Both the position numbers and the translations under genes were made by a program. A stretch of DNA of 64,000 bases, taken from positions 512,330-576,329 of the forward strand of contig QZIT01000005.1 in NCBI GenBank assembly GCA_003599145.1, given 5' to 3'. The notes beneath the pieces are model-generated. The model was given only the letters and a program-made list of their open reading frames with translations. It ran no database searches and was not told the origin of the DNA. Each line of letters opens with the position of its first letter. Position 1 is the first letter of the stretch. Of this stretch, positions 47,855 through 63,805 are shown piece after piece. Source of the DNA: Candidatus Woesearchaeota archaeon (GTDB taxonomy: Archaea > Nanobdellota > Nanobdellia > Woesearchaeales > UBA9642).

Positions 47855-48862
47855 TTACGATTTTTCTGCCTTCATGTGTTTTTTATAGAAACGGTTAAGG
47901 TACTGTTTAATGGCGTTGCGCTGATATCTGAATCTGGCCAGCACTTTTTTTAGGTCAAGGGCCTGCCATCGCTGAATAGCAAGATCTGCGTGTTTATTTT
48001 TTCCAAAAATGCTTATTCCTCCCGTGTCCAAGTTATAATTTTTTAGCGCCTTGAATGATTTTTTTTCTGAAAGAAGAAATTGTTTTTCCACGTTGTGTAT
48101 GAGTTGTTTGTATTCCTGCATTTCTTCATCTGAAGGCAATGTAGGATTCACCAGCGCTGCAGGAACAGGTTTCTTCAGTAAAATTAAAAAAAAATGAACA
48201 GGAGGCATCAGCACATGCCTCACCAGCCACTGCAAAGCTCGTAAAACAGCATGTTTTGAGGGCAAGAGTCCTAAAACAGAAAACCCGAACGGAAGTTTTC
48301 TCATCCAGGGCGCTGTTTTTTCTACCGCAGAAAAGTTTTTCGCGCTAACATGATAGCAATAAACAGTAAAAAATGCATGTTGAATAATGTTTCCGTGTTT
48401 ACTGACGCTTCTTGATGGAAAGAGAATGTTCATGTGCTTCATAAAATCGTCCTCATGCATAATGCGAATGTCAAAGCCATACTCCAATCGAGTGTGGACT
48501 AATTTCGGCCTAAAATGAAATAAGTCATAGTCGTCTGGTTTAAAATTTTTGACTTGCTCAGAAACCTTTCTATTAATGAACGGGTGGATGAGAACATCTC
48601 CGTAAATGTGCAATAACCAACCATAGGCAAATGCCTTTTCTTCATCTGTTTTTGCGTTGCTCAGCATGTTCATGACCAAATCTTTGGAACGAACATAGTG
48701 GCATAAGTCTGAGAGAAAGGAATCTGTATTCGGAAAATAGCCCATATCAGGCCCTAAAACACCTGCAAGAAAATAGGGCAGAACATCTTTTTTGAACCAT
48801 CTCGTATGATGAGCATGATAGACGTTGTTGGCCATATACAAATGAGAGATGAATCCTGGCAT
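47855..48862 (-). CDS. zinc-dependent phospholipase C-like metallo-hydrolase fold protein
   Basis: start MPGFISHLYMAN; His/Asp-rich motifs GPDMGYF, HIYGDVLIHPF. Confidence 0.4.
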   Translation of the reverse strand: MPGFISHLYMANNVYHAHHTRWFKKDVLPYFLAGVLGPDMGYFPNTDSFLSDLCHYVRSKDLVMNMLSNAKTDEEKAFAYGWLLHIYGDVLIHPFINRKVSEQVKNFKPDDYDLFHFRPKLVHTRLEYGFDIRIMHEDDFMKHMNILFPSRSVSKHGNIIQHAFFTVYCYHVSAKNFSAVEKTAPWMRKLPFGFSVLGLLPSKHAVLRALQWLVRHVLMPPVHFFLILLKKPVPAALVNPTLPSDEEMQEYKQLIHNVEKQFLLSEKKSFKALKNYNLDTGGISIFGKNKHADLAIQRWQALDLKKVLARFRYQRNAIKQYLNRFYKKHMKAEKS

Positions 48863-48863
48863 G

Positions 48864-49907
48864 TTACACCACAATGAGCTGCTTTGGGCTTTTCGTGAGC
48901 ACAACAGCATTCTTTTTCAGGACAACATCATCCTCAATACGAATTCCTAATTTATGGGGGATATAGATCCCTGGCTCTATGGTGATAACCGTGTTTGTTT
49001 TAAAAATCGTTGCTGTTCTGAAAAAAGGAGGTTCATGAACATCGATACCCAAACCATGACCCAAAGAATGGATGAAATACTTTGCATACTTGCCTAATTG
49101 CTGCTTGGCAAATGCGTTAATTTTTGAAACGTCACGAGTCTTTTCTAGAAAATCTATAGTTTTCTGCTGAGCTTGAAGAACAAGGTCATAGAATTTCTTT
49201 TCTTTTTCAGACGGTTTACCAATATAAACAGTTCTGGTCATATCACTGCAATAGCCTTTATACTGCAATCCAAAATCAATCACCAGAAAGCCTCTAGCAA
49301 AAGTTTTACTGATTTCTGCGTGAGGGCTTGCCGCATCTTTTCCTGATGCAAGAATAGGTTTAAAGGCGGGCTTTGCATCTGCATCAATAATTTTTTTTAG
49401 AATAAAGCGATACGCTTCCTGAGGACTATGAAGCTTTTCTTCTTGCAATTGCCGTAATAATTCTAAAAAAATGGTGTCCGTCAATTTGCATGCTTTTGCA
49501 ATAGTGTCTAGTTCGCTTTCTGTTTTTGTTTCACGAAGTTCTGAAAGAAGCGCAGCTATGTTTATCACTTCAGTTTTAGAAGTTCTTATTTTTTCATGCT
49601 CTGCAACCGAAACAAAATCCATGTTAAGTCCTGCTGTTTTTTTGCCTTTAAGCAACGGCGTCAGCGCTTGAAAGATATCTTGAACAGCAACTGCTTTTTT
49701 TATGCGGGATTTTCTAGCTCTCAGTAACTCCATAGGAGGCACGAGTAATATCGCGTCAGAAGGAGTTATAAACAGACCCCCATACGCAAAGGTCATGCCT
49801 GAAAAATAATTAAGGTTAGAATCCTGCTTTGAAAGGGACGTATTAAAAATAAAACAGCAATCGATGTGTTCATCGCGCAGCTTTTTTTGAAGTATGGCAA
49901 GTTTCAT
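48864..49907 (-). CDS. M24-family Xaa-Pro aminopeptidase/dipeptidase
   Basis: 347 aa; HSLGHGLGIDVHEPP and IEPGIYIP...GIRIEDDV pita-bread motifs. Confidence 0.85.
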   Translation of the reverse strand: MKLAILQKKLRDEHIDCCFIFNTSLSKQDSNLNYFSGMTFAYGGLFITPSDAILLVPPMELLRARKSRIKKAVAVQDIFQALTPLLKGKKTAGLNMDFVSVAEHEKIRTSKTEVINIAALLSELRETKTESELDTIAKACKLTDTIFLELLRQLQEEKLHSPQEAYRFILKKIIDADAKPAFKPILASGKDAASPHAEISKTFARGFLVIDFGLQYKGYCSDMTRTVYIGKPSEKEKKFYDLVLQAQQKTIDFLEKTRDVSKINAFAKQQLGKYAKYFIHSLGHGLGIDVHEPPFFRTATIFKTNTVITIEPGIYIPHKLGIRIEDDVVLKKNAVVLTKSPKQLIVV

Positions 49908-50618: not shown

Positions 50619-51461
50619 ATGGGAACGCTCATCAGAAGTTTTGATTTGGTAAGGACAACATTTGCTGTTTTGCAGAAAGATAAAGAACTCCTTGTTTTTC
50701 CTCTGTTTTCCTTTTTCTTTTCAGCGATTGCATTTTTAGTTTTTCTCCTACCTATTTTTTTGAGCATGAATAAACTGGAAGCCGCGAATCCATTAAATAC
50801 ACTCATAGGGTTCCACCTCTATTTTTTTGCATACTACGTTATTACGTATTTCATCACTTACTTTTTTACTGCAGGCGTCATTAGTTGCGCTTACATGAGA
50901 TTAGAAGGAAAAAATCCGAATGTTAAAGACGGGTTGCGCATAGCGTTTAAAAATACAGGAAAAATTTTTCTCTGGTCCTTGATTTCTGCAACAGTGGGAT
51001 TTATTTTAAAACAAATTGCTGAGCGTTCAAAGCTTATTGGAAAAATTATTGCTGCAGTGTTAGGATTGATGTGGAGCTTGCTTACTTTTTTTGTCATACC
51101 TGTTATGATTATAGAACAAAAAGGGGTTTTTTCTTCTATCAAGCGTTCAGCAGCATTGTTCAAAGACACGTGGGGAGAAAACATCGTCGGACAAATCTCC
51201 ATAGGTATTTTCTTTTTTGCTGTTGGCATTATAGGCATCATCGCAGGAGTTATTCTCGTCATACTTCTTTATCCAATCTTCGGAGGATACTTCACCATCG
51301 TCATGTGGATATTTTTAATGCTTTATATCACCTTTTTAAGCCTTGTCAGCACAACGCTACAGGGCATTTTTGTTGCTGCATTATATCGCTATGCTACAAC
51401 CAAAAAAATATCTCTTGATTTTGACACAGAACTTTTGCAGAGCGCATTTACTAAAAATTAA
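50619..51461 (+). CDS. polytopic membrane protein, hypothetical
   Basis: 280 aa; ~6 TM. Confidence 0.45.
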   Translation: MGTLIRSFDLVRTTFAVLQKDKELLVFPLFSFFFSAIAFLVFLLPIFLSMNKLEAANPLNTLIGFHLYFFAYYVITYFITYFFTAGVISCAYMRLEGKNPNVKDGLRIAFKNTGKIFLWSLISATVGFILKQIAERSKLIGKIIAAVLGLMWSLLTFFVIPVMIIEQKGVFSSIKRSAALFKDTWGENIVGQISIGIFFFAVGIIGIIAGVILVILLYPIFGGYFTIVMWIFLMLYITFLSLVSTTLQGIFVAALYRYATTKKISLDFDTELLQSAFTKN

Positions 51462-52477: not shown

Positions 52478-52585
52478 ACAAACAGTAAACAACACTTCTT
52501 TTTATAGGTTTTGGAAATAGGGGCTGTGAAGATGCACAGGACAAGAACACAAAACTGTTTTAAAGGACATCTGCTTTCAAACATC

Positions 52586-53428
52586 ATGCTCTCAGTAACC
52601 AACCTTGCAACAGCGTTGTACTGCAAAAGAAAGCTCTTTATCGAAAAAGTTCTTCGTTTAAAAAAGATACCAAAGGAATCTCTAGCCAAAGGCAAAGTTA
52701 GACATGCAGCTTACGAGCTGGTAAACAAAGAGGACGAGAGTATTGTCAGAACTATCAGAAAAAAAACAGAGTTTCCAGAATTATTGCTATTTTATAAGAA
52801 GAAACACCTGCAATGCCTGCAAAATGCACTCCTTCAACATAAAGGAGAGCTGAAGGAAGTCAACCTTGCACTTCCAGACGTTTTTAAGCAAAGCTGGCCA
52901 TCCCTCTATCGGGAAACGAAAGAGCGAGCATTCCATGTATTTTCGTTCATGGAAAAGCATCAAGTTTATGGTGAGGAGTTATGGCAATTACTGACTCCAA
53001 AAATAGATTCTGAAGTAAAAATAGTCTCTGAAGAGCTCCTGTTAACAGGAATTATAGATCAAGTATGGCACTATGAAGATGAAACCATTCCTTATGAGCT
53101 TAAAACAGGTAGTGCACCATTAAAAGGCGTTTGGCCAAGCCACAGTATTCAAATAGGAAGCTATATTTTAATGCTCCAAAACATCCAGGAAAACGCCAAA
53201 AAAGGCTATGTAAAGTATCTTGACATCCAGGAATCCCGAGAAGTATTTTTAAATCCTTTCTTAGAGGATAAAATTCTTGCAACAAGGGACGCCGTTGTTA
53301 CGATGATAGAGACCCGTGAATTGCCAGATCGCACTTCCAACAAAAAAAAGTGCGATTCCTGCGAATTCAAGGCGCAGTGCTACGATGAAAAAGTTATGGA
53401 TGCTGAGATGAAAAAGCTGCAGAATTAA
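52586..53428 (+). CDS. Cas4-like/RecB-family PD-(D/E)xK exonuclease with 4-Cys cluster (no CRISPR context)
   Basis: N-terminal Cys (ALYCKRK), GIIDQVW (D), ELKTG (ExK), C-terminal CDSCEFKAQC. Confidence 0.55.
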   Translation: MLSVTNLATALYCKRKLFIEKVLRLKKIPKESLAKGKVRHAAYELVNKEDESIVRTIRKKTEFPELLLFYKKKHLQCLQNALLQHKGELKEVNLALPDVFKQSWPSLYRETKERAFHVFSFMEKHQVYGEELWQLLTPKIDSEVKIVSEELLLTGIIDQVWHYEDETIPYELKTGSAPLKGVWPSHSIQIGSYILMLQNIQENAKKGYVKYLDIQESREVFLNPFLEDKILATRDAVVTMIETRELPDRTSNKKKCDSCEFKAQCYDEKVMDAEMKKLQN

Positions 53429-54773: not shown

Positions 54774-54805
54774 GTTTTCTAGAAAAAGGATAAAAAAAGA
54801 AAAAA

Positions 54806-55765
54806 TTAGCCTGCACTGACATCTTTAATAATGATGTCTTTCTCTATGTATTCTCCGTACAGGTAATCTAGCGTTACCAAGAATACAGGCTCATAGATCT
54901 TTCCTTCGTTTCCCATGGTTACCGTACAGGTAACTGTTCTTGGAGCGCCGTTGTATAAATTAACATAACCAGCAACTCCTCCTTCTGAAAGGGCAGGGCA
55001 GTTAACGGTTGCATCAGTATCTTCTGGCAAGCTCACCGTAACGTAAACAATGTTCTTATCGACATTCGTTACAGAATCGTCACAGAACCTCTGGCTGCCT
55101 TTCTTGTAGATTTGCCCTGTTCCGACGTGTGATATAACCAAAAGCAAAGATGCCTTATTTTGCCCCGCGGGATTTTGCGATAAGGAGGTTATTTGAACAG
55201 GGGCTCCTGAATTCTTAGGGCTTTTTACTTCATTGAGCTTGCAAATCTTATCTGCATCCTTTGAGGTTTCGATGACGTTTTCTTTAATGCATATTTTTGT
55301 CGACACCCTAGTCTGATAGTCGTAGCAGGCTTCAGCTCTTAATGTAAAGAAATCATTTCCAAAAATATCCTGCTGGTAATTGAAGTTTTCAAAGTTTATG
55401 CTGGTAATGTCTCCATCAATAATGGTTCCTTCGAAGTTTTTTCGCTTGCCCTTGACATCGACATCTATAGCCTTTGAGGTTTCAGGATTTCCAAAATACG
55501 CAGAATTCAGCCCTATAAGCGACACTTTTCCATAATCTCTTGAAGCAACAAAGTCATACTCTCCTTTGTTTTCAATAATGACACCTATGCCAAAAGGATA
55601 TTGACCTGCATCAAATATTTCTTCAGGCGGATTTCCTTCCTGAAAGGAAAGCGCTAATCCTGTATTGCCTCCTGCATACGGGTCAAAAGCACTTGTGACC
55701 TGTTTTTGACCACAGCTAACCACAAAAAAAGCAAGTAATAAGACTGCAAAGAGTATTTTTCTCAT
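54806..55765 (-). CDS. lipoprotein, paralog family member with shared Cys-rich C-terminal domain
   Basis: 319 aa; lipobox VVSCGQ; ACYDYQTRVSTKICI...CKLNEVKSPKNSGAPVQITSL. Confidence 0.55.
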   Translation of the reverse strand: MRKILFAVLLLAFFVVSCGQKQVTSAFDPYAGGNTGLALSFQEGNPPEEIFDAGQYPFGIGVIIENKGEYDFVASRDYGKVSLIGLNSAYFGNPETSKAIDVDVKGKRKNFEGTIIDGDITSINFENFNYQQDIFGNDFFTLRAEACYDYQTRVSTKICIKENVIETSKDADKICKLNEVKSPKNSGAPVQITSLSQNPAGQNKASLLLVISHVGTGQIYKKGSQRFCDDSVTNVDKNIVYVTVSLPEDTDATVNCPALSEGGVAGYVNLYNGAPRTVTCTVTMGNEGKIYEPVFLVTLDYLYGEYIEKDIIIKDVSAG

Positions 55766-55829
55766 TTTGAAACCTCCTGTTTTTCCATACGCTTATTAAC
55801 GGGATGAACCCCTTTATATTATTTTCCTT

Positions 55830-57164
55830 TTATGTCACTCTTTTAATCGTGACTGATTTCTGAACAGTTTGAGAGTAGCCATAGGCCATCTCGATAATCA
55901 AATTGTCGGGATATGCTGTATTTGGAGCATTATCTGGGATGTCGTACTCGCAGGTAACCATGCCCTGTCCGTTAGTCAATCTTACCAATCTATTAGGATT
56001 GCACTTCATGCTATAAGGGTCTCCTGTTCCCAGGTTGATATAATTTATCCAAACGAGGTTCAAGTCTTTCTCTGTTACCCTGTCAGGATTCCAAGGGTTG
56101 CATTTTTGCAATGCAAATGGACTATAGACAGTACCTTTGCCTACATTTCTAATGTAAATCTTAAAAAGTATTTTTCTAGGCGTATTTTCCTGCTCTATTC
56201 TGGTTATGGCAACAGGAGCTCCCTGGCTTTTCCATGATTGCGCTCTTACTGTGCAAACTTTTCTGCCTCCATCATAAGGATACTTGTCTATGCAAACAGA
56301 GGGAGTTGCGTGGGTAACATATGCATAACATGCTGTTGCAGTGATGGGCTGTATGGTTTCGTCTAAACCTTGAGGCCATTGCATGACCGTCGCCTTGAAG
56401 TTCAAATAATCTTTTTCTCCACCAGGATAATAATGATTATCGCCTAAAAGCAAAAAGGGAATCCCATATCTCTTATCTGGAAACTGTATTCCTACACCCT
56501 GATAAAACTGACTTAATTGGGTCATGGCCATTCTACCGTAATAGGCATTTTCAACACTCACTGCCTGCAGGTCAAGCGCAGAGTCAAAATTGCAGTGTAT
56601 CTTATTGACGTTTTGATCAAGATTTTCACAGTTAAGATTGAGAGTTCCAAAAAGCTGGGTGTCTTCATCAAACCAATCTTTTCCTGTAATGCTATCAAGC
56701 AGCTCTCCAAGGTTTCCATCGACATGAAGATTTCCAAATTCACCAAAAACTCCTCCTCCAACACCATAGCCTTGTCCAAAAAAGCAGTCAAAGGCAATAT
56801 TTTCATTGCCTGAAACGCTACCTGCAGCAATATCGCAGGAATTTATACCGTAGAGATTCTGCTCTTGCGCAAACGGAGGAATAGATAGAATGCTTGGATT
56901 ATATCCTGAAATGTAAACAGAGCCCATAGCATAATTCGCTCCTTGATTGTCTAATTTAACATTGATATCAAACGTATTATCATTAACATTGCCATCTGAA
57001 TAGAAATAGACTCTTGAAGGGGGCGTATTATCTTCAAAGGTCATCCTAACTCCTTCTGTGCCTACATAATACTTTTCTGTTTTTGGATTATTGGGATTGC
57101 TTACGAAACTGCAAGAAGCCAAAAAAAGCGATAAAAGAATAAAGACTGGTAATAATTTTCTCAT
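55830..57164 (-). CDS. lipoprotein, paralog family member
   Basis: 444 aa; lipobox LASCS; ACYAYVTHATPSVCIDK...CTVRAQSWKSQGAPVAITRIEQ. Confidence 0.55.
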   Translation of the reverse strand: MRKLLPVFILLSLFLASCSFVSNPNNPKTEKYYVGTEGVRMTFEDNTPPSRVYFYSDGNVNDNTFDINVKLDNQGANYAMGSVYISGYNPSILSIPPFAQEQNLYGINSCDIAAGSVSGNENIAFDCFFGQGYGVGGGVFGEFGNLHVDGNLGELLDSITGKDWFDEDTQLFGTLNLNCENLDQNVNKIHCNFDSALDLQAVSVENAYYGRMAMTQLSQFYQGVGIQFPDKRYGIPFLLLGDNHYYPGGEKDYLNFKATVMQWPQGLDETIQPITATACYAYVTHATPSVCIDKYPYDGGRKVCTVRAQSWKSQGAPVAITRIEQENTPRKILFKIYIRNVGKGTVYSPFALQKCNPWNPDRVTEKDLNLVWINYINLGTGDPYSMKCNPNRLVRLTNGQGMVTCEYDIPDNAPNTAYPDNLIIEMAYGYSQTVQKSVTIKRVT

Positions 57165-57233
57165 GCTTCAATTTTTAGCTTTTGTATATATAAATATTAC
57201 TGTTTGCAGTATAGTTTGCAATACGCAAAACTG

Positions 57234-58154
57234 TCAGCGAACAATCTGAACATCTTTGCTGGAAGTCTGAAAGTACAAGTAATCTGTTTGGATGGTCAAA
57301 ATATCTGGTTGGCTGATGAACGTTAGCTCCAAAGGATCACCTATCAATTTGCAGTTCACGGTGCCTTCATTATTCATAAAATTCACAGGATTGGGATTAC
57401 AATCTAATGGTCTGTTGAAGAGACTTGCATTAATAATCAATTTACCCCATAGCTGAGTTGGAGACTCTTTAAGCACACACTGTTGCTGTATAGATTGCTC
57501 TGTTTTCTGAATCATAGTTCCCCCACCTACATTTTTAAGCGTGATGGCAAAAGAAGGCGTCACTCTATTATCTGAAACAGTCATTCTTGGCTCTACTCTC
57601 GTTATGGCAACAGGAGCTCCCTGATTTGCAAAGGTAAGCAGTTTTGCGCTGCAACTTTTTTTTCTTGCATCAAGATTAAAAGGATCTTTGTCTATGCAGA
57701 CATCTGCTGTTAATTTTGTTGTATAAGGATAGCAAACATTCATCAGTATTTTAGAAGACGGACTTTCCCTTTGACCTTCTATGGTCCTAGCATGGAACAA
57801 GTAACTATACGTTTCTAAAGAACCTTCTTGATTAAAGTAATGCTTACCAGGTAGCTCAATTTCTGTTGGTTCTTCAGAACCATTCAAGGTGAAGTAATAG
57901 CTATCATAGATGAAATAGAGATAGCCCTCTGTTTTTTCATCTTTGGATATATTAAAAGCCCCTGCATTTTGAACTTTGACAATAACATTAAAATCTTCTT
58001 CTTGAAATATTTTTGCAGGAGGCGCATTTTTCATAAACTCTGTTTTTAATCCATAAGGCCCTTTGTAAGGATTAAAAGACGATGGCTGCTTGGTTGTTGA
58101 AGTGCAAGCAGTAAGCAGCAACAAGGCAACCATGGCGATGAATACATATTTCAT
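57234..58154 (-). CDS. lipoprotein, paralog family member
   Basis: 306 aa; lipobox LTACTS; VCYPYTTKLTADVCIDK...CSAKLLTFANQGAPVAITRVEP. Confidence 0.55.
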   Translation of the reverse strand: MKYVFIAMVALLLLTACTSTTKQPSSFNPYKGPYGLKTEFMKNAPPAKIFQEEDFNVIVKVQNAGAFNISKDEKTEGYLYFIYDSYYFTLNGSEEPTEIELPGKHYFNQEGSLETYSYLFHARTIEGQRESPSSKILMNVCYPYTTKLTADVCIDKDPFNLDARKKSCSAKLLTFANQGAPVAITRVEPRMTVSDNRVTPSFAITLKNVGGGTMIQKTEQSIQQQCVLKESPTQLWGKLIINASLFNRPLDCNPNPVNFMNNEGTVNCKLIGDPLELTFISQPDILTIQTDYLYFQTSSKDVQIVR

Positions 58155-60682
58155 CTTGGAGCACCTATCTGTACAGATTTTGTTTTCGAAAGTTCATAAT
58201 CATAAGACGCTATAACGATAAACGTATTTACAGATATTCCTCCATCCCCAAGTAAATCATCTGCATAGGCTGTTTTATTTTCAGGATTAAGAACATACTC
58301 AGAAACAGCACAGGAGTAATATTCGTTAAGGAAGGCATTTTTATCAAAAACTTCAACGCCTGAAGGATTATAACTAAAGCGATAGATGCTGTGAATAGGT
58401 TTAGAGCCTCCTGGCAAATAGTGCGAGGGTATTGGCCCTTTTTTCAACCCCTGACCGGTAACAGACTCCATAATCATGCCATTGCCTGTGTAAAGGGCAA
58501 CATGACCAACACCATCTCCTTGAGGATTGGTAAAAACAATATCGCCTGGTTTTGCATTTGCATTTATTTCTGTTAAAGAACAATCTGGACTGGAAGGAGT
58601 TATCTGTTTATCTCCGCATATAAGTTTTGCATTCATGCTTCTCGCCAATCTTAAATAACCTGAAGCAGACAGCCGTTCTGAGAATCCAGGAACGCCTGCA
58701 TGACTCATAACCCAATAGGTCCATCCAGAGCAATCAAAACCTTCTTCCGGGCTTTCCCCTCCATATTGATAACAAGTATCTTCTCCTGTAGGACCGTATT
58801 TTTCATAATAGTAATTTGCAATGCCCATAACACATTGCGAGGTTTTGCAAGGAACTATGGGTTCTTCCGGCGTAATGCAAAATGTTGGTGTCTTTTGAAT
58901 AATAAACGTATCTGATGTATTTTCCATTTTTAATCTGCATCTGACGGTTAAATACTCTGAGTTCACATTTGCAGGTATATCAACAAACGTGTAATTGGTG
59001 TACTTTCCATCTTCTGCAACGTGAACATTCTGAAGGTTTTTAGGATCTTTGGTATTGCAGGTTGTTAAATCAAGCTGCAAAGGTTTGGGAATTCTAAACG
59101 TCAACTGGTTAATTTTAACAACTTTTCCCAAAGGATCACTGTTTTGAATGGTTATGCCAAAAACGGGCAGGATAGGATTTTCTTTGCTCACTGCCATTGG
59201 CTGTTCAGGAGGATTTCTGATATCAACTAATCCTAATTTTACAGGTCCATTGGTATAGACTGCTTCGGGATATCTTGCTATTTGATATAAGCTTACAGGG
59301 TCTTTATTTTCAGAGCGCAAATTTCTCAATAAATCTCTATCCATAAACGTGTAGGTAACATAGCCCCATGTCTGAAAGTTAAAGGTTGACTTGAATGTAA
59401 ACTGATGGCTTTGTTTAGTAAAATCAATAGTTGTTGGACCTAAAGCAGGTCCGATGTTGCATTGCAAATAATAAGTTTCTAACTCAGAAATGCCGAATCC
59501 TGCAGGGTCAACTAACCCTTCATAATCATCCAGAAAACACTTATTCGTTACTTTTGCTTCATCAACAAATGTTCTTCCTGTTACTGTAATATACCCCCCT
59601 ATAGGGTCTCCGTATTCAAAATAAGTATAATAAGGCTCTATCTCTCCAAACGTAACTCCTAACTGTACACCTTTATTTTTCTCAACTTCTGCTGCGTAAT
59701 AGGGATCTGCTGCAACTCTTATTTGATAGGTTACGTTTCCTGGTATTCCTAAAGCCACATTCATCATTCTTTTTGCAGCTTCCTTGATGACACTCCACAC
59801 TTTCTGCAAAGGAGACATGACATTTCCATCAGGTCCTGCTGCTGTTATCTGCCCAAAGTCAATAAAGCCAACAACTAAAAAGGAAACAAGAATAACGACC
59901 CAAATTGCTTTGATCGTTCCAAAGAAATAATCGAAGTGTTTTGCAGTATAAACAGGCCATGCAGGAACCAATACTAAAAACAGATTGAACAAATCTCCGT
60001 AGCTTAATCCTCCAAATGCATCTCCTGTAGGAATAACGGTTCTCAGTAAAGGAATGAAAATGCTTGCTGCAGAAATTGCAAAATATCCGAAAATGTGCCA
60101 TGCTCCGCCAAAATTTCCAGGCTGCCTAAAAACAAAAAACCAAGCAAGGATTGCAAAAATCAGATAAACAATATATGCATGATCATACAAGGCACCTGTT
60201 CTTTGAAATCCATAGCCAAAAGCATCAATCAAATGCCAAATTAACGTTAACCAAAAAAACCATTTGTACGCATTGTTTGTCCCTTGATTTTTTAACCAGC
60301 TTGCTGTTCCTCCAATACCTTGAGCTGTTTTTTGCACTGCACCTTTGCCCATTTGATAACCAACAGCTCCAACTGTTGCTCCTACTGCTGCAGTTGCCAA
60401 GGTTCCTCTACCCATAGCTTTTGTTCCTTTCCAAAGTCCTTTTCCTGTTGCCTTCATTCCTTTTTTAGTGTAATTACCATATCTTGCAAATCGTTCACGC
60501 ATACTTTCCTTTAACTGTTCTTCCACTTGCTCTTCTGACGGTTGCTGAGTTTGTTGAATAGGCTGTTCTATCCTGCTTTGCTTAGCAGGTTCTTCGTCCA
60601 TCTGAGAACTCGCCCTTCTATCTTTAATTTTAATCCGCGAGGCGTCTCTTTCCTGCTCATTGTAAGGGCTAACGTTAACCAT
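58151..60682 (-). CDS. large polytopic membrane protein with extracellular NlpC/P60-family cysteine peptidase domain
   Basis: 843 aa; cytoplasmic Gln/Gly-rich N-terminus, ~6 TM helices, extracellular region, FDCSGWTYWV (catalytic Cys) ... GHVALYTGNG (His) approx. 58376..58780; 4-nt overlap with downstream lipoprotein gene. Confidence 0.6.
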   Translation of the reverse strand: MVNVSPYNEQERDASRIKIKDRRASSQMDEEPAKQSRIEQPIQQTQQPSEEQVEEQLKESMRERFARYGNYTKKGMKATGKGLWKGTKAMGRGTLATAAVGATVGAVGYQMGKGAVQKTAQGIGGTASWLKNQGTNNAYKWFFWLTLIWHLIDAFGYGFQRTGALYDHAYIVYLIFAILAWFFVFRQPGNFGGAWHIFGYFAISAASIFIPLLRTVIPTGDAFGGLSYGDLFNLFLVLVPAWPVYTAKHFDYFFGTIKAIWVVILVSFLVVGFIDFGQITAAGPDGNVMSPLQKVWSVIKEAAKRMMNVALGIPGNVTYQIRVAADPYYAAEVEKNKGVQLGVTFGEIEPYYTYFEYGDPIGGYITVTGRTFVDEAKVTNKCFLDDYEGLVDPAGFGISELETYYLQCNIGPALGPTTIDFTKQSHQFTFKSTFNFQTWGYVTYTFMDRDLLRNLRSENKDPVSLYQIARYPEAVYTNGPVKLGLVDIRNPPEQPMAVSKENPILPVFGITIQNSDPLGKVVKINQLTFRIPKPLQLDLTTCNTKDPKNLQNVHVAEDGKYTNYTFVDIPANVNSEYLTVRCRLKMENTSDTFIIQKTPTFCITPEEPIVPCKTSQCVMGIANYYYEKYGPTGEDTCYQYGGESPEEGFDCSGWTYWVMSHAGVPGFSERLSASGYLRLARSMNAKLICGDKQITPSSPDCSLTEINANAKPGDIVFTNPQGDGVGHVALYTGNGMIMESVTGQGLKKGPIPSHYLPGGSKPIHSIYRFSYNPSGVEVFDKNAFLNEYYSCAVSEYVLNPENKTAYADDLLGDGGISVNTFIVIASYDYELSKTKSVQIGAPR

Positions 60683-60722
60683 TGCTTACTTTGAAGCTTG
60701 GTGGTATATAAATATTTAGAAA

Positions 60723-61919
60723 TTAGTCGTTCTCTTCAATGAAAACTTTTAAATCAACAATATCCAGCGTTGTTCTTGGCTCTAACTCGATGGCGTTGGT
60801 GCCGTGCCTTAGATAATTGTCAACGTTCTTCTCGTACTGTATTTTATCGGTGTCAAAGGTGAAGGAAATGCCGTTAAAGGTTATAGTTCCCTGCTTGTTA
60901 TCCCTGTCATTGACAAACCGCAGGCGTATGGTTGCATTATACTTGCTTTCCAAAACATCATCATCAGGGTCATCTTCATCAATAGTCTGAAAAAACTCAT
61001 CATCGACTTCAAAATAGTAAATAGGATATAACTGCTCCTTCATGCTCGTCCTCACTCTCAAATTATCAACCAAGTAAGAACCCCTGTCTGTCTTGAATTG
61101 CAAAATGTTGTCTCCTTGATAAATATCGTCAGGATTAAGCAAAACATCATTTTTTACGCCGCAATCTGCGATGGCCGAGTACACAATCTTATGGTTGAGC
61201 CATATCAGCAAGGTTCCTACTGCTTTGCTATCGCAGCGAGGGAAAAAAGTGAGGCTTCCTCTTTCGAGGTTTTGTTTTTCCACATCAGAAACAAAAAAGT
61301 GTTGTTCGCTTGCACTGGTCGTTACATCTTTAAAGTTCGCCGTTACCTTAATATTTTCAAAAGAATATTCGTTAATTCTCCAAAATGCCCATCCTGGACT
61401 GGAAACTCTAAACTCTAACGTATTTTTTCCCTTAATAAGGTCTGAAGGCAAAGGTATCGGTTCAGGGCTTCCTTTTTCCACTTCTCCATTAAAAATCTCG
61501 TTTCCATTCAAAAACAAGATAAGTCTTCCATCTGCAGCCTCGAGATTAAAGGACAATAAAAAGTCATTTAAGTTTTCCCCGGAGTCAAAAGACATGGTTG
61601 CGAAGGATTTTTCAAAAACACCATTTCTTGAATAGAGAGACTTCACTTCCTTCAGCACTTCTCCAGACTCTGTTGAGTACATCCTGAAGGATGGCAATTC
61701 ATGGCTTCGTTCGTCAAATTTCAAATAGTCAATTCTTCCAGGATGCTCCAGTAAAAGAGTCTTATTCAAGTTTGCATCACTGTTTCCATCGTCGTCAGTG
61801 CTGTTTTCACCTAACAAATCAGTCCTCACATCAGGAGGGAGGAACAGAATGTAAAGAATAATAGCGAGTGTTATTAAAGCAACCATAATTGCTGCATTCG
61901 AACCAGACTGTGCTTTCAT
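60723..61919 (-). CDS. membrane-anchored (N-terminal signal-anchor) secreted acidic protein, first gene of surface cluster
   Basis: 398 aa; MKAQSGSNAAIMVALITLAIILYILF, Asp-rich extracellular domain. Confidence 0.45.
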   Translation of the reverse strand: MKAQSGSNAAIMVALITLAIILYILFLPPDVRTDLLGENSTDDDGNSDANLNKTLLLEHPGRIDYLKFDERSHELPSFRMYSTESGEVLKEVKSLYSRNGVFEKSFATMSFDSGENLNDFLLSFNLEAADGRLILFLNGNEIFNGEVEKGSPEPIPLPSDLIKGKNTLEFRVSSPGWAFWRINEYSFENIKVTANFKDVTTSASEQHFFVSDVEKQNLERGSLTFFPRCDSKAVGTLLIWLNHKIVYSAIADCGVKNDVLLNPDDIYQGDNILQFKTDRGSYLVDNLRVRTSMKEQLYPIYYFEVDDEFFQTIDEDDPDDDVLESKYNATIRLRFVNDRDNKQGTITFNGISFTFDTDKIQYEKNVDNYLRHGTNAIELEPRTTLDIVDLKVFIEEND

Positions 61920-61967
61920 ATCGTTACATTAATAAGCTTTATATATATAAATTTTGTTGTTACTGTT

Positions 61968-62984
61968 ATGAGGATTCTTTCAAAGGACTTAAAAAAAGGA
62001 TATATCAAGCTTCAGGCTCAAACCAATGAAGATTTATGGTATTTAAGCCAGATCATTGAACAAGGAGACTTAGTTAAAGGAGAGGCTGAAAGAAAAATCA
62101 AGTTAGGGGGAAGCGAGGAAAAAACAACCGTTGTTAAAAAGAAGGTATTTGTGGAGATTCAAGCTGAAAAGATAGAGTACGATGTTGTTTTGAGGGTTTT
62201 AGGCACTATTGTAGAATGTCCTGATGATTTGCCAAAAGGAAGCCATCAAAATATAACCGTAGAACCCCATTCAGTCATTGCCATAACCAAAGAATGGCTG
62301 TCCATTCACTTAGAAAAATTAAAGCAGGCGCAGGAGCAAAAGATAAACATGCTCTTGGTTCTTTTTGACAGAGAGCATGCGTTGTTTGTTGTCTTGGATA
62401 ATACAGGAACAAAGATGCTTGCAGAGGTTTCAGGAAACGTGAACAAAAAAAACTATGAAAATTCTGGAAATGATTTTTTCAAAGAACTCGCAAAAGAAAT
62501 CGAGGCATATCAGAAAAGATTTGCAACGATTATTGCAGCAAGCCCTTCTTTTTGGAATGATTATTTGCTTAAAGAGCTGAAAAACAAGGAGGGCATCATT
62601 TTTGCCAGTTGTTCAGAAGTAAGCGAAAGCGCAGTGCGGGAAGTGCTCAAAAGACCTGAATTGAAAAATGCACTCGAGCAAAGCAGAATTGCAAGCGATG
62701 AAACGCTTATGCAACGGCTTCTTGGAGAGGTTGCAAAAAACAACGCATTTTATGGAGTCAAAGAAGCAGAAGAAAAAATCTCTTCAGGTAACGTTACTGT
62801 GCTGATGGTTAGCGAGCATTTCTTGAAAGAAGCTAGAGAAAAAAAAAACTACAAAGATATTGAACAGCTCATGAAAACTGCAGAAAAAATGCATGCAGAG
62901 CTTCACATTTTAGAAAGCAAACAGCTTGATGGCTTGGGAGGCATTGCAGGAATATTACGATGGAAAGACTACAAGAGCTCATAG
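61968..62984 (+). CDS. pelA: Pelota/Dom34 mRNA-surveillance factor
   Basis: 338 aa; N-terminal DLWYLSQIIEQGDLV, central and eRF1-like C-terminal domains. Confidence 0.8.
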   Translation: MRILSKDLKKGYIKLQAQTNEDLWYLSQIIEQGDLVKGEAERKIKLGGSEEKTTVVKKKVFVEIQAEKIEYDVVLRVLGTIVECPDDLPKGSHQNITVEPHSVIAITKEWLSIHLEKLKQAQEQKINMLLVLFDREHALFVVLDNTGTKMLAEVSGNVNKKNYENSGNDFFKELAKEIEAYQKRFATIIAASPSFWNDYLLKELKNKEGIIFASCSEVSESAVREVLKRPELKNALEQSRIASDETLMQRLLGEVAKNNAFYGVKEAEEKISSGNVTVLMVSEHFLKEAREKKNYKDIEQLMKTAEKMHAELHILESKQLDGLGGIAGILRWKDYKSS

Positions 62985-63805
62985 CGCTCATAAAGCAAAA
63001 AAGAGAATTGAAAAACCTCGATGATGATGTTGTTAGAGAAAAGATCATGCTCATCTTGAAAAAAAACAACAACACGAAAATAGAGTCTCTTGTTAAGAAG
63101 AAAGACATAAAAAAAATAATCAAGGAAACCAGGGCAGAATTAAGAAAAGTGTATGGCGTTTTTTTGCAGGACAAGTATGCGTCAAAAGATAAACTGCTAG
63201 AAGAGCTTGTTGCACTGTTGAAGGCAGAAAAAAGCCAGGAAAGAAAAAAAGAGATAGCCAAAACCTATTGCGATAAAATACTCCTGCTCCATCAATCAAC
63301 CAAAGAAAGGCTTCCTCACTATGAAGAGGTTTATAGCAGCATTTTCAAAATAACCAAAAAACCAAAAAGCATTTTAGATCTTGCCTGCGGTCTCAATCCT
63401 GCAAGCTATTTTTATTTGCACAGCACTCCGCATTATTTTGCGTCAGACCTAAACCAAGATGACAGCGATTTTCTGAATAGATTTTTTCAGGCTCTAAAAG
63501 TAAACGGCCATGCAGAAAAAAAAGATTTGTTGAAAGAGCAAACATATCAAAAAGCAGACGTCTGTTTTTTATTCAAGGCGCTTGATTCTTTAGAAAGAGT
63601 AAAAAGAAATGTCAGCAAAGAACTTTTGCAGAACATCCCCTCCAGCCACATCGTTGTTAGTTTTCCTAAAGCATCATTAAGCAGCAAAAAAACAATACGG
63701 TTGGAAAAAAGAAACTGGTTTTTTAGGTTGTTGAAAGAGCTTGCATGGGAATATCAAACTTTTGAAGTGCAAAATGAGCTTTTCTTCGTAGTGAAAAAGA
63801 AATAA
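62960..63805 (+). CDS. class I SAM-dependent methyltransferase (possibly rRNA methyltransferase)
   Basis: 281 aa; ILDLACGLNP motif I. Confidence 0.5.
   Translation: MERLQELIALIKQKRELKNLDDDVVREKIMLILKKNNNTKIESLVKKKDIKKIIKETRAELRKVYGVFLQDKYASKDKLLEELVALLKAEKSQERKKEIAKTYCDKILLLHQSTKERLPHYEEVYSSIFKITKKPKSILDLACGLNPASYFYLHSTPHYFASDLNQDDSDFLNRFFQALKVNGHAEKKDLLKEQTYQKADVCFLFKALDSLERVKRNVSKELLQNIPSSHIVVSFPKASLSSKKTIRLEKRNWFFRLLKELAWEYQTFEVQNELFFVVKKK

Follow-up and report, generated by a model that had tools for sequence, protein, structure and literature searches.

A conserved five-gene locus of Woesearchaeota with three lipoprotein paralogs of ancient origin: a candidate membrane-anchored surface complex

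Woesearchaeota are among the most widespread uncultured archaea and are thought to depend on other cells; to our knowledge, nothing is known of their envelope or attachment apparatus. In Gram-positive conjugation, membrane-anchored hydrolases of the PrgK/TraG type (LytM, SLT, CHAP) open the wall for transfer, and PrgK of pCF10, TraG of pIP501 and Orf14 of Tn916 all join an N-terminal membrane anchor to interchangeable LytM, SLT or CHAP/NlpC-P60 domains. Tandem surface lipoprotein paralogs in a small, host-dependent cell are a feature of the variable families of Mycoplasma and Borrelia. Archaeal lipobox lipoproteins are exported by the Sec or Tat route, lipidated in an AliA/AliB-dependent manner and anchored on the outer face of the membrane; those characterised are mostly haloarchaeal solute-binding proteins, and lipoproteins are predicted to be prevalent in DPANN archaea (PMC12462473). 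For the murein hydrolases of Woese- and Pacearchaeota, an action on bacterial hosts has been suggested (PMC8204110, PMC9723730, PMC12352652). Here we analyse a stretch of 64,000 nucleotides from a Candidatus Woesearchaeota archaeon (contig QZIT01000005.1, positions 512,330 to 576,329; hereafter the window), in which a sequence-only reading had noticed three adjacent lipoprotein genes, LP1, LP2 and LP3. We propose that these would be the final three cistrons of a five-gene operon, ancient and vertically inherited in Woesearchaeota, that begins with the genes p398 and p843 and, with about even confidence, that the products of all five assemble into a single hetero-oligomeric surface complex anchored in the membrane.

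How does this locus compare with the described systems? Like the known archaeal lipobox lipoproteins, the three proteins carry a signal peptide and a lipobox and would be anchored on the outer face of the membrane. They differ from them in a Cys-rich fold modelled as two beta-sandwiches, in belonging to a family without a Pfam model and in forming a fixed triplet within a five-gene module. With CARDB, DUF11 and other immunoglobulin (Ig)-like surface domains they share all-beta sandwiches and a ‘v.v.N.G’ strand-turn motif, but only one domain superposes, one of 64 members matches Pfam CARDB, and the six-Cys pattern together with the CYxYxT, CIDxD, QGAPVAIT and YGY motifs is peculiar to the lipoprotein family. 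The reported DPANN murein hydrolases are alike in placing bacterial-type hydrolase domains on surface proteins of the same lineages, for which contact with bacterial hosts has been proposed; here, however, the hydrolase is an optional insertion in a five-gene module that is conserved independently of it and goes undescribed in those papers.

The lipoprotein genes lie on the minus strand at 54806-55765 (LP1, 319 aa), 55830-57164 (LP2, 444 aa) and 57234-58154 (LP3, 306 aa), exactly where the sequence-only reading had placed them. Each product starts with a basic K/R n-region, a hydrophobic core and a lipobox Cys, as expected of an SPII-type signal (MRKILFAVLLLAFFVVSC18 in LP1, MRKLLPVFILLSLFLASC18 in LP2 and MKYVFIAMVALLLLTAC17 in LP3; lipoboxes VVSC18, LASC18 and LTAC17), a lipobox being scored as [LVI][ASTVI][GAS]C within ~15-35 residues, after a charged n-region and an h-region. 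The paralogy is genuine: pairwise BLASTP gives E values on the order of 1e-11 to 1e-19 (LP1/LP3 2e-11, LP1/LP2 9e-12, LP2/LP3 1e-19), and a 113-member family hidden Markov model (HMM) spans all three proteins end to end (HMM positions 2-310) with E values of 1e-94, 1.6e-69 and 4.6e-55. These two results rule out that the shared motifs are chance or low-complexity matches. A search of the 64-kb window with the family HMM found no further paralogs.

The details of the resemblance depart from the earlier description. The block said to be shared at the C-terminus is homologous, but the homology is full-length. In the C-terminal half there are six conserved Cys rather than three (LP3 C141, C153, C168, C226, C252 and C268), each present in 99-100% of the 113 members and together probably forming three disulfides; the supposedly invariant QGAPVxITR shrinks to GAPVxIT, which is common to all three proteins, as LP1 reads SGAPVQITS. 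The N-terminal halves, described as strongly diverged, are indeed less conserved (17-20% identity among the window paralogs, against 23-35% for the C-terminal halves), but they are still homologous and retain motifs across the paralogs (G..GL...F..N.PP ... N.G). LP2 is an LP3-type module whose extra length comes from an insertion of ~120 aa (aa 98-215; 56520..56873, minus strand) between HMM positions 90 and 93, which brings four additional Cys (110, 127, 179 and 191); similar insertions occur in the position-2 orthologs of loci L001 and L011 and in several other family members. LP1 belongs to the most divergent subfamily (NSGAPVQITS, N.GE, CIKEN, YLY), and LP3 carries the signature QGAPVAITRVEPRM / CIDKD within 57234..58154 (minus strand).

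The five genes, all on the minus strand, follow the order p398, p843, lipoprotein position 1 (LP3), position 2 (LP2) and position 3 (LP1). The identical order is found in eight genomes, namely the window and L001, L002, L003, L007, L009, L010 and L011, and is seen in part in L005 and L006. Module-bearing loci range from 35 to 62% in guanine plus cytosine (GC) content, and most copies are flanked, like that of the window, by a divergent Pelota gene and a convergent gene for the RFC small subunit. The housekeeping genes of the window comprise those for the RFC small subunit, TyrRS, Pelota, a proteasome-type AAA ATPase and TYW2. The p843 stop codon overlaps the LP3 start (ATGA), and the same overlap is present in L007, L009 and L010; judged from this arrangement, translation of LP3 is coupled to that of p843. 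The genome records that contain the locus bear the labels Nanoarchaeota or Woesearchaeota, except for L003 (CAYTWW010000002.1), a 220-kb contig of 49.5% GC assigned to an ‘uncultured Methanosarcinales archaeon’, which holds the full module in the same Pelota/RFC synteny and also shikimate-pathway genes. Since its synteny equals that of the Woesearchaeota loci, the Methanosarcinales label is probably a binning or labelling error; otherwise the module extends beyond Woesearchaeota. The locus search patterns were derived from a narrow alignment and reach close relatives only, so that the 4 loci they returned are no measure of prevalence. One locus match, L004 (Erysipelotrichaceae), was a chance match with no family member present.

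The lipoproteins sort by their place in this order. In a neighbour-joining tree built on BLOSUM distances, the proteins cluster by operon position, not by genome. A crude Kimura-distance bootstrap was saturated and misplaced L007_2, and a leave-one-genome-out test was used in its place, in which subfamily HMMs built from seven genomes were applied to the eighth: 24 of 24 proteins scored best against the HMM of their own position, usually by 50-200 bits. Two paralogs of one genome resemble each other no more than paralogs drawn from separate genomes do, the identity between positions 1 and 2 being 22.3% within and 21.5% between genomes in the N-domain and 32.6% and 30.9% in the C-domain. Each position has its own signature across genomes: QGAPVA.T.VEPRM, CIDTD and YGY at position 1; SQGAPVAIT and CIDP at position 2; NSGAPV.VT (NSGAPVxVT), N.GE, CIK.N and YDY at position 3. 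Because the order is fixed, the positional assignment complete and the within-genome paralogs no more alike, these comparisons make the triplication ancient, preceding the divergence of these lineages, and the three proteins members of non-interchangeable orthologous subfamilies. The eight genomes show no trace of a recent duplication or of gene conversion.

Amino-acid identity to the closest orthologs found is 41-47%; as orthologs are at most 47% identical, synonymous sites are saturated and a ratio of nonsynonymous to synonymous change (dN/dS) is not computable. Ortholog identity is 25-27% in the N-domain and 34-38% in the C-domain. Since orthologs too have the less conserved N-domain, the asymmetry is a general property of the module or fold and not the product of paralog-specific diversification. 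The earlier suggestion of a diversifying, surface-exposed part is borne out in that the proteins are probably lipid-anchored at the surface and the N-domain is their more variable half; that this variability arose among the paralogs is not. The original observation is real once its details are corrected, and the evolutionary reading of local duplication with diversification was wrong on both timing and mode.

The first gene of the module, p398 (60723..61919, minus strand), encodes 398 aa, with the N-terminus MKAQSGSN (MKAQSGSNAAIMVALITLAIILYILFL) followed by a single transmembrane (TM) helix at aa 9-27. The start agrees with a class III (prepilin-like) signal, scored as [KR][GA], a small or polar residue (often Q) and then a hydrophobic helix, all at the extreme N-terminus. 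The motif [KR][GAS]Q is conserved in 5 of the 6 aligned sequences, the L002 copy being without its N-terminus; four orthologs read KNRAQ, KRGQ, RKGQ and RKSQ at this site. The remainder consists of three tandem repeats of ~100 aa, beta-rich by sequence pattern, with no Pfam, NCBIfam or PDB match. Orthologs occupy the same position in L001, L002, L003, L005, L007, L009, L010 and L011. No type IV filament ATPase or platform family was found among the scanned module neighbours and the Pfam-annotated loci. A relation of p398 to the lipoprotein family or to the p843 ectodomain was considered and rejected (hhalign E 0.1-0.8).

The second gene, p843 (58151..60682, minus strand), encodes an 843-aa polytopic membrane protein with a K/R/G/A-rich N-terminal tail, three strong and two weaker TM segments (aa ~138-274) and a beta-rich ectodomain at aa ~328-610 (58853..59701, minus strand), whose last strand lies at aa 808-837. 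Orthologs of the ectodomain occur at the same position in seven other loci with E values of 1e-69 to 1e-114. Profile comparison of this ectodomain with the lipoprotein family by hhalign gave global E values of 1.2e-5 with 7 sequences and 2.8e-4 with 10, and local E values of 4.5e-4 and 2.9e-3, respectively; a reversed-profile control gave 0.38 (global) and 0.48 (local). The two share collinear motifs (FNFxTWxY/CYxYxT, AVYTNGPV/QGAPVAIT and FGITIQN..G.I/F.I.I.N.G.G.V), both end in a Y.Y strand, and the order of strands is alike in the moderately confident part of an AlphaFold2 (AF2) model of the P0182 ectodomain and in the LP3 model. That the p843 ectodomain is a fourth, TM-anchored copy of the lipoprotein module is suggested by these data, and we slightly favour it.

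In the window, p843 carries an insertion (aa 589-807; 58262..58918, minus strand) that contains an NlpC/P60 domain (PF00877) at aa 637-752 (E 6.9e-14, 52.1 bits against a cutoff of 23). The catalytic motif residues are in place in the sequence, with Cys651 in DCSGW, His727 in GHVALY and Glu739 12 residues past the His, an arrangement of Cys, His and Glu that we presume to be comparable with that of RipA. The nearest PDB sequence matches of the domain are Tn916-like cell-wall hydrolases. The L001 ortholog aligns with window residues 30-588 and 808-837 only; because it skips residues 589-807, we take the NlpC/P60 segment to be an insertion before the last strand. The positional equivalent in L007 (4120-7065, 981 aa) has a Peptidase_M23 domain. 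This protein is too divergent for phmmer or the ectodomain HMM, and its C-terminus shows by eye an SLT-like ‘E...GGASIGMMQI’ motif, which would mean two hydrolase domains. The lipoprotein P0014 has acquired an SLT domain between HMM positions 281 and 280, again before the last strand, so that the SLT of P0014 and the NlpC/P60 of p843 occupy the same topological insertion site. No hydrolase-sized insertion is present in the p843 homologs L001, L002, L003, L005, P0182 and P0183, and those of L009-L011 have no Pfam hit on record.

Three unrelated families of murein hydrolase have been recruited independently to the same scaffold. Since this happened in an organism without murein, the scaffold would appear to be exposed and able to face a bacterial wall. 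The fusions agree with suggestions in the literature of interaction with, or predation on, bacteria by Woesearchaeota and Pacearchaeota (PMC8204110, PMC9723730, PMC12352652), and with hydrolase domains fused to module proteins the earlier idea of a cell-cell or surface interface is plausible.

The lipoproteins belong to a large family. LP3 is identical to hypothetical protein C4573_04895 (Candidatus Woesearchaeota archaeon, 576-kb contig), and a HMMER search with a 7-sequence profile returned 3037 clusters (50% identity) at E<=1e-3 and 1306 at E<=1e-30, most matches being full-length, about 300-340 aa; a word-indexed protein search had found only a handful of relatives. The lipobox Cys is present in 98% of the 113 aligned members, almost all of the best 150 matches have both a signal peptide and a lipobox, and the members that carry an organism name are all recorded as ‘Candidatus Woesearchaeota archaeon’ or ‘archaeon’. 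Against Pfam, LP2 matched no family at E<=1, and LP1 and LP3 gave sub-threshold noise only; 64 members scanned singly yielded no family beyond one weak CARDB match (PF07705, E 0.0059). The lipoproteins had no meaningful NCBIfam match and the family profile no PDB sequence match; across the Pfam, NCBIfam and PDB-sequence searches of all five proteins, the NlpC/P60 domain of p843 was the sole hit. Many members have C-terminal extensions of 200-570 aa past a complete module, for which Pfam gives no match (P0026, P0031, P0044, P0057, P0097, P0125 with 765 aa, P0147, P0148 with 878 aa, and L011 8001-9572). Literature searches found no description of this lipoprotein family or of the five-gene module, and they may be among the unnamed Woese-/Pacearchaeota-specific families of ‘module 98’ (PMC8204110).

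An AF2 model of LP3 from a 7-sequence alignment (pLDDT 79.3, pTM 0.75) is all-beta, with two sandwich domains linked by two very long strands, 133-154 (CYPYxT...VCID) and 281-305 (Y.Y). Foldseek searches of PDB and BFVD with this model returned generic Ig-like ectodomains only (E 1e-6 to 1e-4), among them integrin alpha legs, complement MG domains, pilins, adhesins and DUF11. On the strength of the model, the fold would be that of an extracellular structural or adhesive module and nothing more specific.

Based on these observations, we propose the following model. Each lipoprotein would be exported by a Sec-type route and then lipid-modified on its lipobox Cys, and would display its six-Cys double-beta-sandwich module on the outer face of the membrane. 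LP1-3, the pilin-like p398 and the p843 ectodomain, which may be a fourth copy of the module, would assemble into one complex, anchored by the lipids of the three lipoproteins, by the polytopic protein and by a pilin-like helix. The loop that precedes the last beta-strand would be an exposed site, into which peptidoglycan hydrolases were inserted in some lineages, and the distal face of the complex could touch a bacterial cell wall, forming an interface with host or prey.

Several points weigh against this picture. Physical interaction between the module proteins is something we infer from their genes. A hydrolase domain is present in 2 of 10 p843 homologs (by sequence or recorded Pfam hits) and in one of the ten long proteins among the 74 family members scanned; because so few module proteins carry one, the core function of the module does not depend on peptidoglycan cleavage. 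The matches to the LP3 fold are generic, with TM-scores of about 0.2-0.26 on query length and one domain superposing. The hhalign probability for the p843 ectodomain is 10-60%, which leaves its homology with the lipoproteins at the level of a suggestion, and the AF2 model of a p843 homolog (3-sequence alignment, pLDDT 51) is too poor for its TM domain. Finally, L008 and L012 have lipoproteins of the position-2 and position-3 types only, as classified by the subfamily HMMs, and no p398 or p843 nearby. These pairs (L008 7988-9906 and L012 6963-8948) are possibly a reduced or relocated version of the module.

Many archaeal S-layer proteins consist of Ig-like beta-sandwich domains with conserved Cys, and the double-sandwich lipoproteins share these features. 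The five proteins could be the cell coat itself, an S-layer-like or lipoprotein envelope lattice anchored by p843, with the hydrolases as opportunistic passengers and no specific role in host contact. The retention of the module among housekeeping genes across the sampled Woesearchaeota genomes would suit a coat, as would the lack of a hydrolase domain in most module proteins, and three pseudo-equivalent subunits would lend themselves to a lattice. S-layers are usually made of one or two proteins, however, and a Pacearchaeota metaproteome (PMC11537232) reports unspecified hypothetical proteins only. We regard the coat as doubtful, although it is the most serious competitor of the complex proposed above.

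A trans-envelope conduit analogous to Gram-positive conjugative type IV secretion is improbable. It would have p843 as the channel and the lipoproteins and p398 as an outer collar, and would serve to pass DNA, proteins or cytoplasm from symbiont to host or back. Its attraction is that a polytopic membrane protein with a pilin-like partner here bears the three hydrolase classes of the conjugative systems (M23/LytM, SLT, NlpC-P60/CHAP). Like the conjugative hydrolases, the p843 proteins combine a membrane anchor with interchangeable hydrolase domains, and the Tn916-like PDB matches of the NlpC/P60 domain point the same way; the bulk of the p843 sequence is unrelated to them, however, no secretion ATPase, coupling protein or relaxase lies nearby, and the setting is a chromosomal core locus whose housekeeping synteny speaks against a mobile element. 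Pfam revealed no VirB4- or VirD4-like ATPase, no relaxase and no VirB6 or VirB8 in the loci examined. Type IV secretion components were absent from the module and from the scanned or annotated flanking genes, apart from a non-significant TrwG match (E 0.87).

We give the same small weight to the possibility that the three lipoproteins are independent adhesins or ligand binders, co-located for co-regulation, with p843 and p398 as unrelated neighbours. Archaeal lipoproteins are often solute-binding proteins (PMC12462473) and Ig-like folds are common in adhesins, but the fold here is not of the solute-binding type and there are no adjacent ABC or permease genes. The strict co-occurrence of five genes with overlapping stop and start codons, and the insertion of a hydrolase at the same topological site in p843 and in a lipoprotein, also argue against independence. 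Least credible by far is that the genes were duplicated in tandem locally and recently, and that diversifying selection then acted on a surface N-terminal part, as in the variable surface-lipoprotein families of wall-less or host-associated bacteria, since the tandem same-strand genes, lipoprotein signals and less conserved N-domain that invite it are outweighed by order and positional orthology fixed in eight genomes (24/24), by within-genome paralog identity equal to that between genomes, by just 17-35% identity among the window paralogs and by a copy number constant at three with a stable signature per position; unlike the families of Mycoplasma and Borrelia, the triplet keeps its copy number, order and subfamily identity throughout deep lineages and shows no trace of recent expansion or of gene conversion.

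The proposal of a single operon is accompanied by signals that may drive its expression. A promoter-like element, TTTATATATATAAAGCT, made of a TATA box and AAGCT (61935..61951, minus strand), ends 15 nt upstream of the p398 ATG, within the 48-bp divergent spacer to Pelota. A second copy, TTTATATACCACCAAGCT (60695..60712, minus strand), lies 12 nt upstream of the p843 ATG, and a third, TTTATATATACAAAAGCT (57177..57194, minus strand), 12 nt upstream of the LP2 ATG. Within the 64 kb there are three occurrences of the pattern TTTATATA-N2-9-AAGCT, against 0.06 expected, and all are inside the operon on the minus strand; L002 has one copy of the element upstream of its p398 ortholog. This distribution suggests three co-regulated TATA-box promoters giving leaderless or near-leaderless transcripts. 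LP1 has GGAGGT 8 nt before its ATG. Directly past the LP1 stop, a T-rich tract (54781..54805, minus strand), read from the sequence in the 32-bp convergent spacer to the RFC gene, is the probable archaeal oligo-T terminator of the operon. A scan for sigma-70 promoters and intrinsic terminators gave background level and is inapplicable to archaea.

Other genes of the window deserve mention. A 351-aa protein encoded at 47855-48910 (minus strand) contains a Zn-dependent phospholipase C domain (E 1.7e-11), a membrane-attacking type of enzyme of possible relevance to a predatory or host-dependent way of life. An FmrO-type rRNA methyltransferase gene (62960-63805, plus strand; E 8.9e-35) adjoins Pelota, likewise in L011 (2217-3038); the FmrO family is best known from the 16S rRNA methylases of aminoglycoside resistance. 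Between TyrRS and a PRC-barrel gene lies a stand-alone Cas4-like PD-(D/E)XK nuclease (52511-53428, plus strand; E about 2e-14), with no cas genes among its scanned neighbours. The gene at 50619-51461 (plus strand) specifies a DUF6159 membrane protein (E 1.4e-41) weakly like the membrane domain of glycerophosphodiester phosphodiesterase. ARAGORN found no tRNA gene in the whole window (1-64000).

What are the implications of this module for the biology of Woesearchaeota? Its spread over loci of 35-62% GC, its housekeeping setting and its surface proteins with lipid, helical and pilin-like anchors single it out as a strong candidate for a core structure of the envelope or the host interface in this group. 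The analysis also defines a large lipoprotein family, with more than 3000 clusters at 50% identity, for which there is no curated model, and it puts some of the DPANN murein hydrolases into a structural context, as insertions into this scaffold. We speculate, as a bolder and unlikely extension of the complex proposed here, that four copies of the double-beta-sandwich module, three of them lipid-anchored and the fourth carried by a polytopic membrane protein, and a pilin-like protein constitute a Woesearchaeota-wide organelle for host contact or wall breaching, in which NlpC/P60, M23 and SLT inserts mark the lineages with bacterial hosts. If this is true, the module would be the first genetic point of entry to the means by which this large uncultured group attaches to other cells and feeds on them.

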